This document shows, piece after piece, positions 1,395-44,205 of a stretch of DNA of 64,000 bases; the stretch's first letter is position 1; every line of letters starts with the position of its first letter. The notes below the pieces were generated by a model that searched no databases, was not told the origin of the DNA, and saw nothing but the letters and a program-made list of their open reading frames with translations. Both the position numbers and the translations under genes were made by a program. The stretch covers positions 1,736,001 to 1,800,000 of the forward strand of contig OZ024743.1 in the NCBI GenBank assembly GCA_964016885.1. Direction: 5' to 3'. Source of the stretch: Eledone cirrhosa. Lineage: Eukaryota.

Positions 1395-1442
1395 ATGCAA
1401 ATTAGTCTGCCCACTACTAATTTTCATAGAAAAAGCATATAA
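1395..1442 (+). promoter_or_regulatory. Octamer (ATGCAAAT) plus TATA-like box upstream of the HHR
   Basis: ATGCAAAT at 1395-1402 and catataa at 1436-1442; same spacing in two other HHR elements. Confidence 0.5.
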
Positions 1443-1459
1443 CGATATGTGATTTTACG

Positions 1460-1555
1460 ATTCTCCAGAAAGGCCGGTAGATAGGTAAATATTGCTGATG
1501 AGTTGTAACAACAACGAAACTAGTTCAATATTCCTTGTCTGGCTTTCTGGAGAAT
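1460..1555 (+). ncRNA. Type I hammerhead ribozyme with extended stem I
   Basis: aatattg-CTGATGA(1495)-gttgt aaca acaac-GAAAC-ta-GTT-caatatt; distal arms attctccagaaag/ctttctggagaat are perfectly complementary. Confidence 0.85.
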
Positions 1556-2826
1556 AGAGGAAAGGTGTTTCCTCAAAAACCAGTATGACTCTAAAAACCG
1601 GTTTGTCTGTGTGTTTACATACAGAATAGCTGGATACTCACAGTAAAGTAACCAGTGAAAGACTTGGTACATCTACATATGTATACGTGTGTGTATTCAT
1701 ATGCATACTAGTATTTCAGTATGCATATGTAGATGTACATTTTTAACTTAATTATCTTGACTCTGTTTTCCGTTTATTTTTCACCGAAAATAGTTTTTGA
1801 ATGCATCCTCTCTTTTCATGATATCCGGATTACATTGAGTTCTTCATACGGATTGGACACTACCGTAAACTTTTGGTAGATTTATCTACATATATATATA
1901 TATATATATATATATATATATATATATATATATATATATATATATATATATATATATATATCAAGATATATATCAAGATATATATATATATATATATATA
2001 TCAAGATTTTAAAATTAAAATTAATCAAAATTAAAAAATTAATTTTAAATTAATTTTGATTTATTTTGAAAAATTGGTTGAATTTTACTTGTTCTGCTTA
2101 TCTTGATATTAAGTTCTGGTATATCAAATTATTACCATCGAACCACCTTGAATCATAGACAACCTATGTATTTCTGGGGTACCTAGTACCTTTAGACATA
2201 TTAACTTTATATATATATATATATATATATATATATATATATATATATATATATATATATATATATATATATATATATATATATATATATATATATATTG
2301 TTATACTTGGGGAGGATCATATTGTTGTAATAATATTGCCAGAAATAATAACAGAACACACTCACTGTTTGGTTGGTTTTCGCTTCTGCATCTTTTATAT
2401 CTCCATAGTTAATTTATTTGGCAATCAATGTTTATCATTGACTGACCAACGGTTAAAACTACAGATATAAATAAATATATATATATATATACCCCCGCAT
2501 ATATCAACTTACAAGCATACATGCACACCTGCACGCGCCGGTTATATTTGGCTATATATATATATGCACGTGAGTATCGATAATTTCACAAATGTATGTA
2601 TGTTCTTCTGGTTTTATAATTTCACAAAGTTTTACCAATAGAGAGAGAGTCGGTTTCTAACATAGACACAAGACTCTCTCATTGTAATTTACACAACATC
2701 AACTAGGTAGATATGTATGTATGCATGTGTAGATATGGATGTTATTGTATGTGTGGATGTGGATGTTTTGAGTTGTATGTGTGCATGTGTATATGCTTTG
2801 TATCTGTACATGTGTATATGCAGTTA

Positions 2827-4352
2827 TTAGATGCAACATTTTTGGAATGTTTTACATATTTTTACTGTTTCATTAATGGATTGTACTTGTAATTTCCTAA
2901 TTAGTTGTGTTCTTTCTGTTCCCGTGAAGCCTAGCTTCTCAAGGTTTGTATTGAGGCAGTTACTAACATATCCCAGTGCCCCAATAATCACAGGCATAAA
3001 TCTGAAGGTGTAATCAGAGTGGAGTATCTGCAGAAATATTCTCCTTTTCACTAATCTTTGATATTATATTGGCATCTGCTGGGCTGCTAATTTCCACTAC
3101 TGTACATGTTTTCTTCTCCCTGTCCCATATCATAATATCTGGTGTGTTATGCCTGCATTTTATTGGGGTTTTTACTGGAACATTCCACCAGTACTCTTTC
3201 ATATTATGTACATGGATGTCTTCCACATTGTTGTAGCTTTTAATGTGTTTATTATCGGGGCTATCTATTTTACGAACTGCATTGTACAGTGTTTTGGCCA
3301 CTACATCATGCCTCATAGGTAGATAATACCGCGATGACATCTTCGGACAGCTGCTGATGACATGGGTGATATCCTCGATGTTAGTTCTACAGAGTCTGCA
3401 CTTGTTATCACATCTAGGTGTTTTGCCTGCATCCCTATCTCTTTTGTGAATCAGGTATTTCGTGCTAATCTCCTGTTCCTGGATTGCAAAAGCGTATCCT
3501 TCAAAGTGGGAGCCAATATAGCGGTTGTTGGTCCAAGATAGACCACTTTCCTTATCTATATTACTCTCACTCTGGAGCTTCCTGGCAACATATCCATGCA
3601 TGATTTTTTGCTGATAGGCATGCAGTTTTTCATCCATGGATTCTCTGTGATACTGCTGAGCGACATCACTGGGTGTGAGTTTTTGATTATCACACAGGGA
3701 ATATCTCTCAAGGAGTTCCTTTCCAACTCTCATGATCTTATCTGTTTCATGCAGATAGACTTGCTCGAGAAACGAGGTTCGTAGATGTTGTCGGAGAGAT
3801 ATGATGCGACATTCAAATGTTGTCTGGACTCATGTTAGGCCTCTGCCTCCCTGCTTACGTTTCAAGTAAAGACGGTCTATGTCACTGTTGATGTAGAAGT
3901 TTCCGGTGATGTTCAGTATTTTTCGATTTCCAACATCAACTGCTCGAATTTCGTCTATCGTCCAATTGAGTATTCCAAACGTTGGTGTTAGGACAGGCAC
4001 AGCAAACACATTGTGAGCCACTGTTTTGTTTTGCGCAGAGTTCCGATGACCAGATCTTTCTTAATCGGGTGTAGTATTCCCTGGTTACGCGTTCTTTATT
4101 ATAGGATATGTTCTCATCTATCCCCAGGTATCTGTAGCAGTCCTCATCAGATATCGGTGAAACAGTTAGATCATTGATGACAATGTTGCTAGATTGGGTT
4201 GTTGTTTTTCCCCGCTTTACAGTCATGTATGAGCACTTATCTTGGCCAAACTCCATTCCTATATTCTTTGAGAACGTTGTAACCAGGTCAAGATTTTTCT
4301 TCATCCCATCCATGTTCTTGGCATAGAGTTTCAGATCGTCCACAAAGAAGTT
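2827..4352 (-). mobile_element. 5'-truncated, decayed R4/Dong-like non-LTR retrotransposon (RT C-terminus, CCHC knuckle, restriction-like endonuclease)
   Basis: FFVDDLKLYAK..IGMEFGQDKC..YRYLG; CRLC..EDITHVISSC..RH; PDIMIW..VVEISSPAD; PVIIGALG; frameshifts and stops present. Confidence 0.85.
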
Positions 4353-5394
4353 ATGTATGTATGTATGTATGTATGTATGTATGTATGTATGTATGTATGT
4401 ATGTATGTATGTATGTATGTATGTATGTATGTATGTATGTATGCATGTATGTATGTATGTATGTATGTATGTATGTACAGCCCTGCAACCCTGATGGTAT
4501 CCAATGATGTTGACTTGTTCTTCTTTTTGGTAAATATCATCTTGGTTAAGAGAGTGGGACTGGCTTTGTGCAGTGCCTTTGCTCACTATAAAAGCTTCAC
4601 GGTACAGGCATTGCTTTATATCTGGAGATCTCTCTGCACTTGTCGTCATATGGTACCATGGGCCCAGCACTATGTGTCAATAATTGTCACAAGTGTAGTG
4701 TTTGTACCAGAGTTTTGAAGTCGCTGCCTGGACTAAAAAGTCACACTCGTTCAGCGCATCGGTAGGGGTTCTCCTACATGGATATAAAGTAGTGGCCGTA
4801 CTCGAAAACGAGTTGGCAGCCACCATGTATGTATGTATGTATGTATGTATGTATGTATGTATGTATGTATGTATGTCTATTTGTAAGTTTGAATATATGT
4901 CGGTGTATGTATATATATATATATGTGTGTGTGTGCGTGTGTGTGTGGTATGTATGCATATATATATATATATATATATATATATATATATACAGATACC
5001 TAGATGCAACTTGTCTATTTTGGTATGCTGGTTAGTCTTATCTCTGTGTATTTTGGGATACATAGATTTATAACTAGCTAGACCGTGTAAACAACTTGCA
5101 TGGTGGAAATAACATCAACATATGTAACCTTCAATTCTTACCTTCTATATCAAACAATATCAACAAACAACAACTACTACACACTCTCAAAGCATCCTGT
5201 TTTACTCCGAGATGTAGGAACATTGCTGATGCCCTTTGCACACCGTCCCAGATTAACGAGGTCAATAGAGTTGTTGTTTGTGGTATTGATGCTGTTATTT
5301 AGCTTCAAGTGATCTTTGATCAAGCAATCCAGTAATCAAAGCCAGTGCAGTCGTGACCATCATGTATTTCTTTTATATATTATATATATATATA

Positions 5395-42499: not shown

Positions 42500-43094
42500 T
42501 CTGTATATATATAAAATTAAGTATGTGTGTGAGTGTGTGTGTCTGTGTATTACCTATAGGGGCCTACATCTTACGACCGATTTTCATGAAACTTTACAGG
42601 CTCATAGATTAGTCATCGGGGAGTGTTTGCTATATATCAGCGTATCATTTTTTTTCTATTCCGGGGTCATTCTGCAGATAAAATTCGATAGGGGGGGGGG
42701 GCACCTTTTTTTAGGTATCGAAAAATAAGATTTTTGGCTCTAGCTCCCACATTTTTCAACCGATTTCGTTCAAATTCGAAACTTCGGCTCCACCTCACAC
42801 ATAAATCAATTTACTTGGTTCAACTTTTACACTACGATAGAACCTGTCATTGCACATCTTGTAGTAGCTTTATACTTCGCATTTTTTGTTCAGGGACGGC
42901 GTGGCAGCCGTTTAACTCTTCAAAATACGATTTTTTTCCAACTCCCACATATTCCATACGATTTCACTCAACATTCGCCATTTGCTACACCTTACGACCG
43001 ATTTTCAAGAAACTCGCAGTCGCTCAGATCAACACCTTTTCAGCAAAGCAGATATTATTTTACCTACCCAGGCAATGCTGGGTACTGCTGCTAG
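42500..43094 (+). mobile_element. Non-autonomous Helitron
   Basis: A|TC 5' end (tctgtatatatataaaa), 3' hairpin tacccag-gcaatg-ctgggta followed by CTAG|T; no target-site duplication. Confidence 0.75.
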
Positions 43095-44046
43095 TGTCTA
43101 TATAAAATGTTTTCAACAAAAATCCCTAGGGATCTAATTGACATTGTATATATATATATATATATATATATATATATATATATATATATATATATATATA
43201 TATATATATATATATAAAAGAAATAAGATTTCGCTTCAAGCATAGCTTTATACAACATGTATAGAACTTTCGTATTTCTAAAGGCATACGGTTTTAGGAA
43301 GCTGTAGCTATGTAAACACCGGGGGAGGGGGGTGCTAACGCTCTCTAAGCAAGGGGGACACCTGTCTATGCATTTCAGGCTTGACTGGCTTTCGTCAGGA
43401 CGATCCCTCCCCCGCTTGCGACTGCTGGACTTAAAAAGCCGAGAATATATAGTTTTCTCGTCTGTGCAAATGAGGTGATTAATCTCATTTGCATATGAAG
43501 CTCTATAAGTTGGCTCAACTTATAATAGAAAAGAAATAAGATTTCGCTTCAAGCATAGCTTTATACAACATGTATAGAACTTTCGTATTTCTAAAGGCAT
43601 ACGGTTTTAGGAAGCTGTAGCTATGTAAACACCGGGGGAGGGGGGTGCTAACGCTCTCTAAGCAAGGGGGACAACTGTCTATGCATTTCAGGCTTGACTG
43701 GCTTTCGTCAGGACGATCCCTCCCCCGCTTGCGACTGCTGGACTTAAAAAGCCGAGAATATATAGTTTTCTCGTCTGTGCAAATGAGGTGATTAATCTCA
43801 TTTGCATATGAAGCTCCATAAGTTGGCTCAACTTATAATAGAAAAGAAATAAGATTTCGCTTCAAGCATAGCTTTATACCACAGGGCGTTAGCCCCCCCC
43901 CATCCCCGGTGTTTACATAGCTACGGCTTCCTAAAACCGTATTTCTTTAGAAATACGAAATTTTTATACATATTGTATAAAGCTATGCTTGAAGCGAAAT
44001 CTTATTTCTTTTCTATTATAAGTTGAGCAAGCTAATGCAGCTTCAT

Positions 44047-44094
44047 ATGCAAATGAGATTAATCACCTTATTACACAGACGAGAAAACTATATG
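44047..44094 (+). promoter_or_regulatory. Octamer plus TATA upstream of the HHR
   Basis: ATGCAAAT at 44047 and tatatg at 44089 (tatata in the minus copies, 43446-43451). Confidence 0.5.
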
Positions 44095-44112
44095 TTCTCG
44101 GCTGTTTTCAAG

Positions 44113-44205
44113 TCCAGCAGTTGCAAGCGGGGGGGGGGGATCGTCCTGACGAAGGCCCGTCAAGCCTGAAATGCATAGACAGTTGTCCCCCTTGCTTCTG
44201 CTGGA
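44113..44205 (+). ncRNA. Type I HHR with 1-bp stem III, palindromic TGCA loop and long interrupted stem I
   Basis: tccagcag..aagc..ggggga tc gtc-CTGACGA-aggc ccgtcaa gcct-GAAA-tgca-TA-gac agttg tccccc..gctt ctgctgga. Confidence 0.85.

Follow-up and report, generated by a model that had tools for sequence, protein, structure and literature searches.

Three elements in the 64,000-nucleotide stretch of Eledone cirrhosa DNA analysed here (the window) place the same octamer, followed by a TATA-like word, ahead of a hammerhead ribozyme, which raises the question of whether these small ribozyme elements carry a promoter of their own and, if so, for which polymerase. The class of elements A, B and C is already known: they are non-LTR retrozymes of Penelope (PLE) origin. 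Most probably, they are tandem type I hammerhead retrozymes that PLEs likely copy, and the block of octamer, PSE-like YCAS word and TATA present in every unit likely serves as a built-in snRNA-type promoter, for which Pol II is the likelier polymerase than Pol III.

Features of elements A, B and C in the window (start and cut sites are predictions)
Feature	Position	Strand	Remarks
Element A	1102..1753	+	non-LTR retrozyme with a 466-bp unit, present as 1.4 units; single hammerhead; 3' end at family site 1
A forward octamer ATGCAAAT	1395..1402	+	within TATGCAAATNAG, as in host U6/MRP promoters
A PSE-position word CCACT	1411..1415	+	octamer+16; match to Pol II snRNA matrix weak, p 0.14
A inverted imperfect octamer ATTTTCAT	1420..1427	+	dyad with forward octamer
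A TATA-like CATATAA	1436..1442	+	
A predicted start site	1466..1468	+	TATA+30/31, C|AG; predicted from host spacing
A type I hammerhead	1488..1532	+	core 1495; predicted cut after 1525 (GUU); inside hairpin 1460-1556
Element B	36487..36934	-	about one B-family unit, ~484 bp
B inverted 5' arm	about 36940-37070		adjoins element B
B forward octamer ATGCAAAT	36845..36852	-	
B PSE-position word	36832..36836	-	TTAGC in window copy; TCAGC is the B-family majority
B inverted imperfect octamer ATATGCAT	36819..36826	-	
B TATATA	36805..36810	-	
B predicted start	36780	-	C|AGG; predicted
B type I hammerhead	36728..36770	-	core 36764
Element C tandem arm	43212..43883	-	2.1 units of 313 bp; 3' end at site 2
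C tandem-arm octamers	43807, 43494	-	TATATA at 43764, 43451
C tandem-arm hammerhead cores	43711, 43398	-	stem II with a mismatch
Element C inverted arm	43886..44288	+	3' end at site 1; hairpin 44112-44206
C inverted-arm octamer	44047	+	TCACC 44063-44067; TATATG 44089
C inverted-arm predicted start	44119	+	hammerhead core 44146 (AUA cut)

The first-pass annotation had recognised four such cassettes in the window. All four are where it placed them, with TATA-like hexamers 41-43 bp past the octamer and type I hammerhead cores at the positions tabulated; the octamer at 44047 is on the plus strand rather than the minus strand, and a fifth cassette, at 43807, had been overlooked. The hammerhead of A matches Rfam HH9 at 38.6 bits (E 3e-6), below the gathering threshold of 52. 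The long hairpins that enclose the hammerheads fold with z scores of -5.4, -2.7 and -2.7, and the outer 3' arm of the long hairpin is absent from both minus-strand units of C. The A, B and C loci contain no long non-repetitive open reading frame except one in an unrelated PLE 3 kb away. Counted in the window alone, the octamer is not significant (7 occurrences against 3.58 expected, with 6 of 100 shuffles reaching 7), and two window octamers, at 563 and 28780, have no ribozyme. The repeat search of the window was dominated by microsatellites and a 39-bp array, and matches to Rfam microRNAs were rejected as microsatellite artefacts.

Across the whole genome, the pattern octamer-N78-96-CTGANGA-N10-26-GAAA returns 31,282 matches against 19 for its reversed control, and retrozyme arrays reach over 27 units. 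In 1.11 Mb sampled at even spacing, a hammerhead follows 34 of 131 exact octamers at a distance of 70-115 nt, compared with 1 for the reversed octamer and 0 for octamers downstream of a hammerhead. Among the hammerhead clusters of this sample, exact octamers are confined to A, B and C; none accompanies the 88 hammerheads of the other 16 clusters, and the sampled copy of family D has its octamer at -57, after a deletion. A TATA word follows the octamer at +40 to +43 in 44/47 B and 5/5 A copies versus 4/70 unrelated octamers, and YCASY stands at octamer+16 in 30/47 B, 5/5 A, 2/3 C and 3/5 D copies versus 0/70. Among 64 sampled B copies the octamer-TATA distance is 42 in 60 and 41 in one (3 unscorable), while the octamer-to-ribozyme distance is 80 in 43, 88 in 9, 77 in 7 and 79 in one (4 unscorable).

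Conservation of the block has to be read against the relatedness of the families. The elements had been thought to differ over most of their length, which is right in part. The bodies 3' of the ribozyme align between A and B (z 5.6-7.8) and between B and D (z 11.0 for B88, 4.2 for B2), with only weak alignment of C (z 1.0-3.9); from these alignments A and B are judged homologous outside the cassette and C weakly so. Across five family representatives TATGCAAAT, AG and CA (+17/18) are invariant while neighbouring bases vary. Among B copies drawn at random, no other 9-base window is conserved as well as that of the octamer (0.980; 0 of 149 windows as good), in an analysis repeated without the octamer-selected loci that an earlier B set had contained. 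For the TATA of B, conservation does not clearly exceed that of the adjacent bases (0.927 vs 0.892; 0.969 vs 0.958). Copies of A and of C, 97-100% alike, are too young for within-family conservation to be informative. Contigs of three other organisms match A at 90-99%, but at a depth of 4.5-72 versus over 100,000 in the main run, so that cross-contamination is likely and this apparent cross-species conservation was discarded.

Host genes supply the standard against which the block can be judged. In Pol III type-3 genes (U6 at L208 and L209, the U6 array, the top U6atac locus and RNase MRP) the octamer, with 0-1 mismatch, stands at -76 to -78 and TATA at -30; this set is a selected one, since the octamer occurs at 12/20 U6 and 1/8 U6atac loci, and the remaining U6 and U6atac loci without it look rearranged or retrocopied. 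The 17 types of host U1, U2, U4 and U5 promoter have YCAGY at -55 to -58 (missing at U4 loci L320 and L324), in most cases a TATA-like word close to -30, and lack an octamer between -100 and -50. The retrozyme block is called snRNA-type because host U6, U6atac and RNase MRP genes carry the same octamer at -76 to -78; the proximal octamer of these promoters, TATG(C/G)(A/T)AATKAG, is present in retrozymes and in the host otherwise marks Pol III genes. A Fisher test of 5/5 versus 0/17 was set aside, as it compared selected sets of promoters. A superfamily of small hammerhead retroelements with an upstream promoter-like block, as first envisaged, is upheld, its words being those of host snRNA promoters kept across diverged families.

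The geometry of the block is not that of host U6 genes; it agrees instead with that of host Pol II snRNA genes. The octamer-TATA distance is 40-43 bp in families A-E versus 46-48 bp in host Pol III genes, placing the octamer 4-5 bp nearer to TATA, and a U1/U2-like YCAS word lies at -56 with Pol II-gene spacing: octamer+16 to TATA measures 24-27 bp in retrozymes, about 25-29 in host Pol II genes and 30-32 in Pol III genes. A Pol II matrix scores highest exactly at octamer+16 in 7/9 retrozyme representatives. The scores themselves are -9.8 for A (p 0.14) and -6.7 to 0.7 for B and C, below the leave-one-out scores of real host Pol II genes (2.7 to 21.6), a range that only D_L328 (13.7) and E (7.5) reach; a PSE+TATA composite of at least 3 bits is found at 11/44 B, 1/6 A, 0/7 C and 2/5 D hammerheads. 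Position and spacing fit the host YCAGY, while the sequence itself matches well in D and E, in part in B and C and weakly in A. AATTAA, found at about -89 in 15/17 host Pol II promoters, is absent from the 20 nt upstream of retrozyme octamers. A unit-length RNA would cross T5/T5 in A, T7 in B2 and T4/T5 in C, whereas Pol III would call for a productive transcript without runs of T4 or longer. Judged by these words and distances, the block appears to be a hybrid, used more likely by Pol II than by Pol III. Open-licence PMC and bioRxiv main texts, whose supplements might hold relevant consensus sequences, yielded no account of a promoter of this kind in retrozymes and none of U6 promoters in cephalopods.

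The host spacing also shifts the predicted start of transcription. It had been put at the base of the hairpin (1460, 36784 and 44113), at a fixed distance from TATA. That distance is 8 bp shorter in a common B subfamily, the B hairpin begins about 11 nt 5' of 36784, and TATA+30 predicts starts near 1467, 36780 and 44119, which would fall within the hairpin, 4-7 nt from its base. A C|AG at TATA+30 does not count as independent evidence: it is part of the hairpin arm, and neither E nor the shorter B subfamily has it.

Among the alternatives, a captured Pol III type-3 (U6-like) promoter, whose RNA would mostly end at T5-T7 near the unit end with rare read-through giving circles, survives best, though it is unlikely. 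Proximal TATGCAAATNAG occurs in five Pol III promoter types and 0/17 Pol II types, each of the two end sites of A has a T5 run 2-14 nt upstream, site 2 of B has a T6-T7 run nearby, and in schistosomes a hammerhead satellite is transcribed from an internal Pol III promoter, according to a passage of PMC2220036 that cites it. Yet the octamer-TATA distance is about half a helical turn off, and the YCAS at +16 is a Pol II-gene word. The octamer is kept upstream of 36/44 sampled B ribozymes, so templates regularly span the T runs; site 1 of C has no T4 run, and the paired end sites of inverted insertions suggest internal reverse transcriptase (RT) starts rather than terminators.

It is decidedly improbable that the block is kept as an RNA structure, or as a site for a protein (that of a PLE) on RNA, with transcription from neighbouring promoters. 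The octamer does form the left arm of a dyad in A, B and C, pairing with the inverted imperfect octamer at +23 to +26 in a hairpin whose energy in four copies ranges from -8.9 to -12.3 kcal/mol and which shows covariation at +8, and a whole A unit folds at -150 versus -94 +/- 6 for shuffles. The left arm is nevertheless the same in all five families, and it is the right arm that varies and retains mismatches; YCAS falls in the hairpin loop in A, C and D, the same word holds a promoter position in host U6/MRP genes, and TATA with its fixed distance would be left unexplained. An ordinary Pol II mRNA-type promoter, with a POU site and TATA and without SNAPc, has a lower probability again. In vertebrate H2B and immunoglobulin promoters the octamer lies about 40 bp upstream of TATA, a geometry which the block resembles, and PSE scores are weak in A-C; against this, the exact octamer is found in 0/7 host H2B upstream regions, and the YCASY word at +16 occurs in all families and at none of the unrelated octamers. 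Shared ancestry or chance with no selection on the block draws on the homology of A, B and D and on the unremarkable window count, and is very improbable, being largely refuted by an octamer invariant amid diverged flanks in five families including the weakly related C, by its rank among B windows and by the match to words and positions of host snRNA promoters.

The ends of the insertions bear on how the preferred snRNA-type retrozymes may be copied. Elements A, B and C bear the hallmarks of PLEs: units in tandem, 5' arms that are inverted, a pair of fixed 3' ends, 5' truncation and (TA)n targets. For A, 48/51 3' ends fall at two sites, 5' ends are variable and flanks are (TA)n; head-to-head insertions have one arm ending at each site in 16/22 A and 8/12 C cases, the remainder comprising one same-site insertion each in A and C and others at other ends. 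Passages of PMC8557442 give a 'tail at one end' as a PLE hallmark, and passages of PMC11167929 describe two internal RT start sites. Multimeric arrays with two fixed 3' ends agree with the earlier suggestion that a tandem or circular architecture could regenerate the upstream block. PLE ORFs are common (28/113 loci match), and among the 113 loci no autonomous PLE sharing the A-D termini and no PLE ORF joined to an A-D unit was found. A 3262-bp spacing on C1 that had been read as a full-length PLE is seven 466-bp units. The PLE ORF found close to one A copy (L034/L128) belongs to an independent insertion, which bears a short hammerhead-like motif of its own and, in the stretch examined, lacks the octamer.

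In the proposed cycle, the block of unit n would start RNA about 30 bp past TATA, at a point between a few and 30 nt short of the ribozyme, and the polymerase would continue past the T4-T7 runs and through the promoter of the next unit, n+1. A unit-length RNA would then be released by cleavage at two hammerheads and, once circularised, would include the promoter sequence. A PLE reverse transcriptase/GIY-YIG protein might nick (TA)n DNA and prime at one of two internal sites, the second of them 30-37 nt upstream of the octamer; placing an octamer before a ribozyme again would require copying of nearly one full unit or more, and rolling would yield arrays. Only arrays with two ribozymes behind a promoter could act as masters, and the single-ribozyme A and B copies in the window would be transcribed dead ends.

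A broader interpretation can be advanced only tentatively. A superfamily of over 30,000 units in octopods may run on a chimeric promoter absent from host genes, in which the Pol III proximal octamer (as a dyad) is set on U1/U2-type PSE-TATA spacing; such a compact 50-bp Pol II snRNA-type promoter, with no distal element, would fit a circular RNA and read through oligo-T, and the host may itself select the polymerase on TATA-containing snRNA promoters by the 4-5 bp shift together with the proximal octamer. No description of such a polymerase-selecting spacing code in molluscs was found in open-licence PMC and bioRxiv main texts.

How protein-free retrozymes come to be transcribed at a high level was left open by Cervera and de la Pena (2020, PMC7229834) and by Li, Clavereau and Pollet (2026, bioRxiv 10.64898/2026.07.22.740005); the candidate 50-bp block, with its predicted start sites, would be a concrete answer, and would extend the lone newt precedent to a distant phylum. 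The retrozyme block offers a natural chimera for studying Pol II versus Pol III selection. The comparison also yields the snRNA promoter layout of one cephalopod (proximal octamer in U6, U6atac and MRP; YCAGY plus TATA in U1, U2, U4 and U5), which is useful for guide-RNA and circular-RNA expression tools, and the paired use of two 3' end sites in inverted insertions speaks clearly, at the genomic level, for priming at two sites by a PLE dimer.

The metazoan non-LTR retrozymes of those two studies are the closest class, sharing tandem units (here 313-484 bp) that each hold one type I hammerhead, a low GC content, the absence of an ORF, a range from monomers to long arrays and co-occurrence with PLEs. 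PMC7229834 describes no promoter within the unit (both of its mentions of 'promoter' concern T7) and does not mention cephalopods, and the bioRxiv study has no mention of promoter, TATA or octamer. Unlike the published elements, the Eledone units are tied directly to PLE enzymes by two fixed 3' ends and inverted arms. With the pLTRs and non-autonomous derivatives of PLEs, as portrayed in parts of PMC8557442 and PMC11167929, they share 5' truncation, partial tandems, an inverted 5' arm, a tail at one end, microsatellite targets, two internal RT starts and a promoter in the repeat, here a putative one; they differ in lacking an ORF and in an end-site separation of about 70 nt (A) or 45 nt (C) versus 30-40 in PLEs. 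Sampled PLE-associated hammerhead clusters are without the octamer block, unlike A, B and C.

The closest precedent is newt satellite 2. Its promoter, which Coats, Zhang and Epstein are said to have described in 1994, reportedly comprises an octamer and a PSE in the vertebrate U1/U2 layout. In the octopod block, unlike that layout, the octamer adjoins the PSE position, forms a dyad arm and is followed by TATA. Both are hammerhead repeats arranged in tandem with an snRNA-type promoter inside the unit, a candidate one in Eledone and, according to a citation in PMC2220036, one that Pol II uses in the newt. Octamer, PSE at -40 to -70 and TATA are shared with SNAPc-dependent snRNA promoters as outlined in sections of PMC9652321, where the vertebrate octamer is normally at -250 to -170 and TATA selects Pol III. 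In Eledone, unlike vertebrates, both host snRNA classes have TATA-like words and the octamer is proximal and Pol III-gene specific. The human RPPH1 promoter, in which the DSE adjoins the PSE, has a compact layout and serves both polymerases. A further departure from vertebrates is that host spacing in Eledone differs by 4-5 bp between the Pol II and Pol III classes.

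The cassette of a forward octamer, a YCAS word at the PSE position and a TATA upstream of a type I hammerhead is a real feature of several retrozyme families in Eledone cirrhosa; from its sequence, its role as a promoter is putative. The octamers, hexamers and hammerheads reported in the first-pass annotation for the window elements A, B and C are present, but the octamer at 44047 lies on the plus strand and another at 43807(-) had been overlooked. Seven exact octamers in 64 kb are within chance (6 of 100 shuffles reach as many); a type I hammerhead core lies 88-100 nt downstream of five. 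Across the 3.0-Gb genome, an octamer-hammerhead pattern search gave 31,282 matches versus 19 with the reversed pattern, and the first 100 matches listed, sorted by eye, fall into A (56), B (33), C (3), the further family D (4) and a possible E (1), with 3 unrelated. Within 111 evenly spaced 10-kb pieces of the genome, 34 of 131 exact octamers have a hammerhead 70-115 nt downstream; the control with a reversed octamer gave 1, and that with the octamer placed downstream gave 0. These samples hold 143 hammerheads in 21 clusters, and none of the 88 in the 16 clusters outside A-D has the exact octamer at the cassette position.

The retrozymes bear the octamer word of the host U6 and MRP genes, TATGCAAATNAG, which stays the same in representatives of five families with differing flanks. 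Among 59 B copies sampled at random from 14 loci, none of 149 windows is as well conserved as the octamer; 2 of 149 are when BLAST-selected B loci are added. The comparison of motif with flank that had been proposed earlier singles out the octamer, in B copies and across families, but barely the TATA, whose conservation in B is just slightly above that of neighbouring bases. A TATA at octamer +40 to +43 is present in all 5 A copies, 44 of 47 B copies, 2 of 3 C copies and none of 5 D copies, and at 4 of 70 unrelated octamers. The claim of fixed spacing holds for octamer to TATA (60 of the 64 B copies sampled have 42) but not for TATA to ribozyme, which is 8 bp shorter in a B subfamily (43 copies versus 9 of the window type; at least 6 versus 7 loci). 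The families carry YCAS at octamer+16, which corresponds to -56 when the TATA is placed at -30. The word reads CCACT in A, TCAGC in B and TCACC in C, and in D the sequence is identical to a U2 gene over 10 nt. YCASY is found there at none of the 70 unrelated octamers. A matrix of Pol II genes scores best exactly at octamer+16 in 7 of 9 retrozyme representatives, with p at that position from 0.03 to under 1e-4 (0.14 in A) and scores mostly below those of real genes. An inverted imperfect octamer at +23 to +26 forms a dyad or hairpin with the forward octamer in A, B and C; YCAS occupies the loop of the octamer dyad in A, C and D and its stem in B. The statement that the elements differ over most of their length holds only in part: A-B and B-D are homologous outside the cassette, and the resemblance of C is weak. 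Family D (L111, L328, L330), a B homologue, carries a further two or three 33-bp repeats ahead of its cassette, and these include octamer-like words; family E (L327) is a single sighting with a decayed stem I.

For comparison, snRNA genes were taken from the host genome itself (U1/U2/U4/U5, loci L228-L247 and L256-L326; U6, U6atac and MRP, L208-L227, L248 and L281). The octamer ATGCAAAT lies at -76/-77 in U6 L208, U6 L209 and RNase MRP, and a one-mismatch form at -77/-78 in 10 U6 array copies and the top U6atac, all with a TATA at -30. It is absent from 8 of 20 U6 and 7 of 8 U6atac loci, which look rearranged or retrocopied. In one U6 array type (L214; 6 array loci on C19) the upstream promoter is swapped for other sequence outward from about -25. 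The Pol II set of 17 distinct U1, U2, U4 and U5 upstream types, counted after near-identical array copies were removed, has YCAGY at -55 to -58 (U4 L320 and L324 lack it), AATTAA near -89 in 15, a TATA-like word near -30 in 15 and no octamer within -100 to -50. The proximal octamer is thus a mark of Pol III type-3 genes in this host, whereas the vertebrate snRNA octamer normally lies at -250 to -170, according to a passage of PMC9652321. A candidate distal element, TTACYTCCCTT, occurs near -260 in several Pol II and Pol III snRNA genes.

An snRNA-type reading of the retrozyme block is supported by its host snRNA words and conserved octamer, but its octamer-TATA distance is 40-43 bp versus 46-48 bp in host U6-type genes. 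The block is, by its sequence, not a copy of a U6 promoter. It is established that polymerase choice depends on PSE sequence in Drosophila and on PSE-TATA spacing in plants. The YCAS word and its position, the YCAS-TATA distance of 24-27 (the Pol II-gene range; 30-32 in host Pol III genes) and the T5-T7 runs that unit-length RNA would have to cross favour Pol II, and we lean slightly towards predicting a Pol II promoter. A Pol III promoter is a less probable though possible reading; the proximal octamer speaks for it, but both distances and the T-runs speak against it. That the block is no promoter at all seems improbable beside the host snRNA words. A start at the hairpin base, as first supposed, does not agree with the host spacing, which (TATA+30) predicts starts at about 1467, 36780 and 44119, inside the hairpin 5' arm; these fall at C/AG, as in U4. 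In the shorter B subfamily the predicted start is 8 nt ahead of the ribozyme core.

The elements lack an ORF and hold a single type I hammerhead in each unit, which makes them non-LTR retrozymes as described in part of PMC7229834, a class derived from the terminal repeats (pLTRs) of Penelope-like elements (PLEs) according to a portion of a 2026 preprint (bioRxiv 10.64898/2026.07.22.740005). Units measure 466 bp in A (arrays reach >27 units), 422-535 bp, mostly 456-502 bp, in B, and 313 bp in the window copy of C. The 5' ends are scattered; 3' ends recur at two sites, 24 + 24 of 51 in A (overlapping loci counted twice) and 26 + 8 of 41 in C (one duplicated locus supplies 8 of the 26, and 7 of 41 are breaks relative to the chosen reference unit). 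Of the head-to-head insertions, 16 of 22 in A and 8 of 12 in C have one arm ending at each site; in one further case per family both arms end at the same site, and the remainder have other ends. Flanks are mostly (TA)n among the copies listed. The end pattern, inverted arms and (TA)n flanks match marks described for PLEs: partial tandems, an inverted 5' copy, a single-end tail and microsatellite targets (section of PMC8557442), and two internal RT start sites (section of PMC11167929). PLE ORFs are common (28 of 113 loci), one having an Octopus vulgaris protein as best named match (62%); no autonomous partner of the retrozymes was identified among these loci. At L128/L034 (G000:C1:21389000-21394500) a PLE ORF combines RT, a C-terminal GIY-YIG and an Asn-rich insert, accompanied by an inverted 5'-truncated copy.

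A promoter located 5' of the transcription start is normally lost on retrotransposition. In these units site 2 precedes the next octamer by 30-37 nt, and an octamer (at most one mismatch) is kept upstream of 36 of 44 sampled B ribozymes, suggesting that RNA templates usually hold the promoter before the ribozyme. The template may be a circle or multimer, so that the promoter would be regenerated ahead of the ribozyme, and such RNA could be made by arrays with two ribozymes downstream of the promoter. The tandem arm of C, where stem II has a mismatch and the hairpin is shortened, is the only part of the window laid out in this way. The circular or tandem regeneration envisaged in the first-pass annotation is consistent with this architecture.

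Further window hammerheads represent at least four more families, some as inverted pairs; relatives occur close to PLE ORFs, and they are probably pLTRs. The long inverted repeats probably derive from inverted 5' arms of additional PLE-type insertions. Elsewhere, L348 and L364 hold a hammerhead repeat of 310-312 bp, in tandem and inverted copies, that lacks the octamer block; its stem I contains TTACTTCCCTT, a word found upstream of snRNA genes. Another dispersed repeat (L146, L163, L335) starts with an octamer followed by AAGTAAAGGTATAAAC and has no hammerhead nearby.

Hammerhead elements and other repeats in the window
Feature	Position (strand)	Remarks
Element A	1102-1753 (+)	
Element B	36487-36934 (-)	
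Element C	43212-44288	tandem arm -, inverted arm +
Further type I hammerheads	6893(+), 16708(-), 32078(-)/32248(+), 39361(+), 41353(-), 46995(+)	no octamer block
Long near-perfect inverted repeats	17003-17817, 19345-19973, 9129-9490, 6981-7341	arms 141-219 nt
39-bp unit array	50234-64000, to window end	about 345 copies, 95-98% alike

No description of a conserved octamer-PSE-TATA block across the retrozyme superfamily, or of the host snRNA promoter layout, was found in the open-licence PMC and bioRxiv literature. The retrozyme class and its PLE link were already known, as was one hammerhead satellite with an snRNA promoter inside the repeat. That precedent is the newt satellite (as cited in a passage of PMC2220036), where the internal snRNA promoter belongs to a single hammerhead satellite, whereas here the block extends across a retrozyme superfamily.
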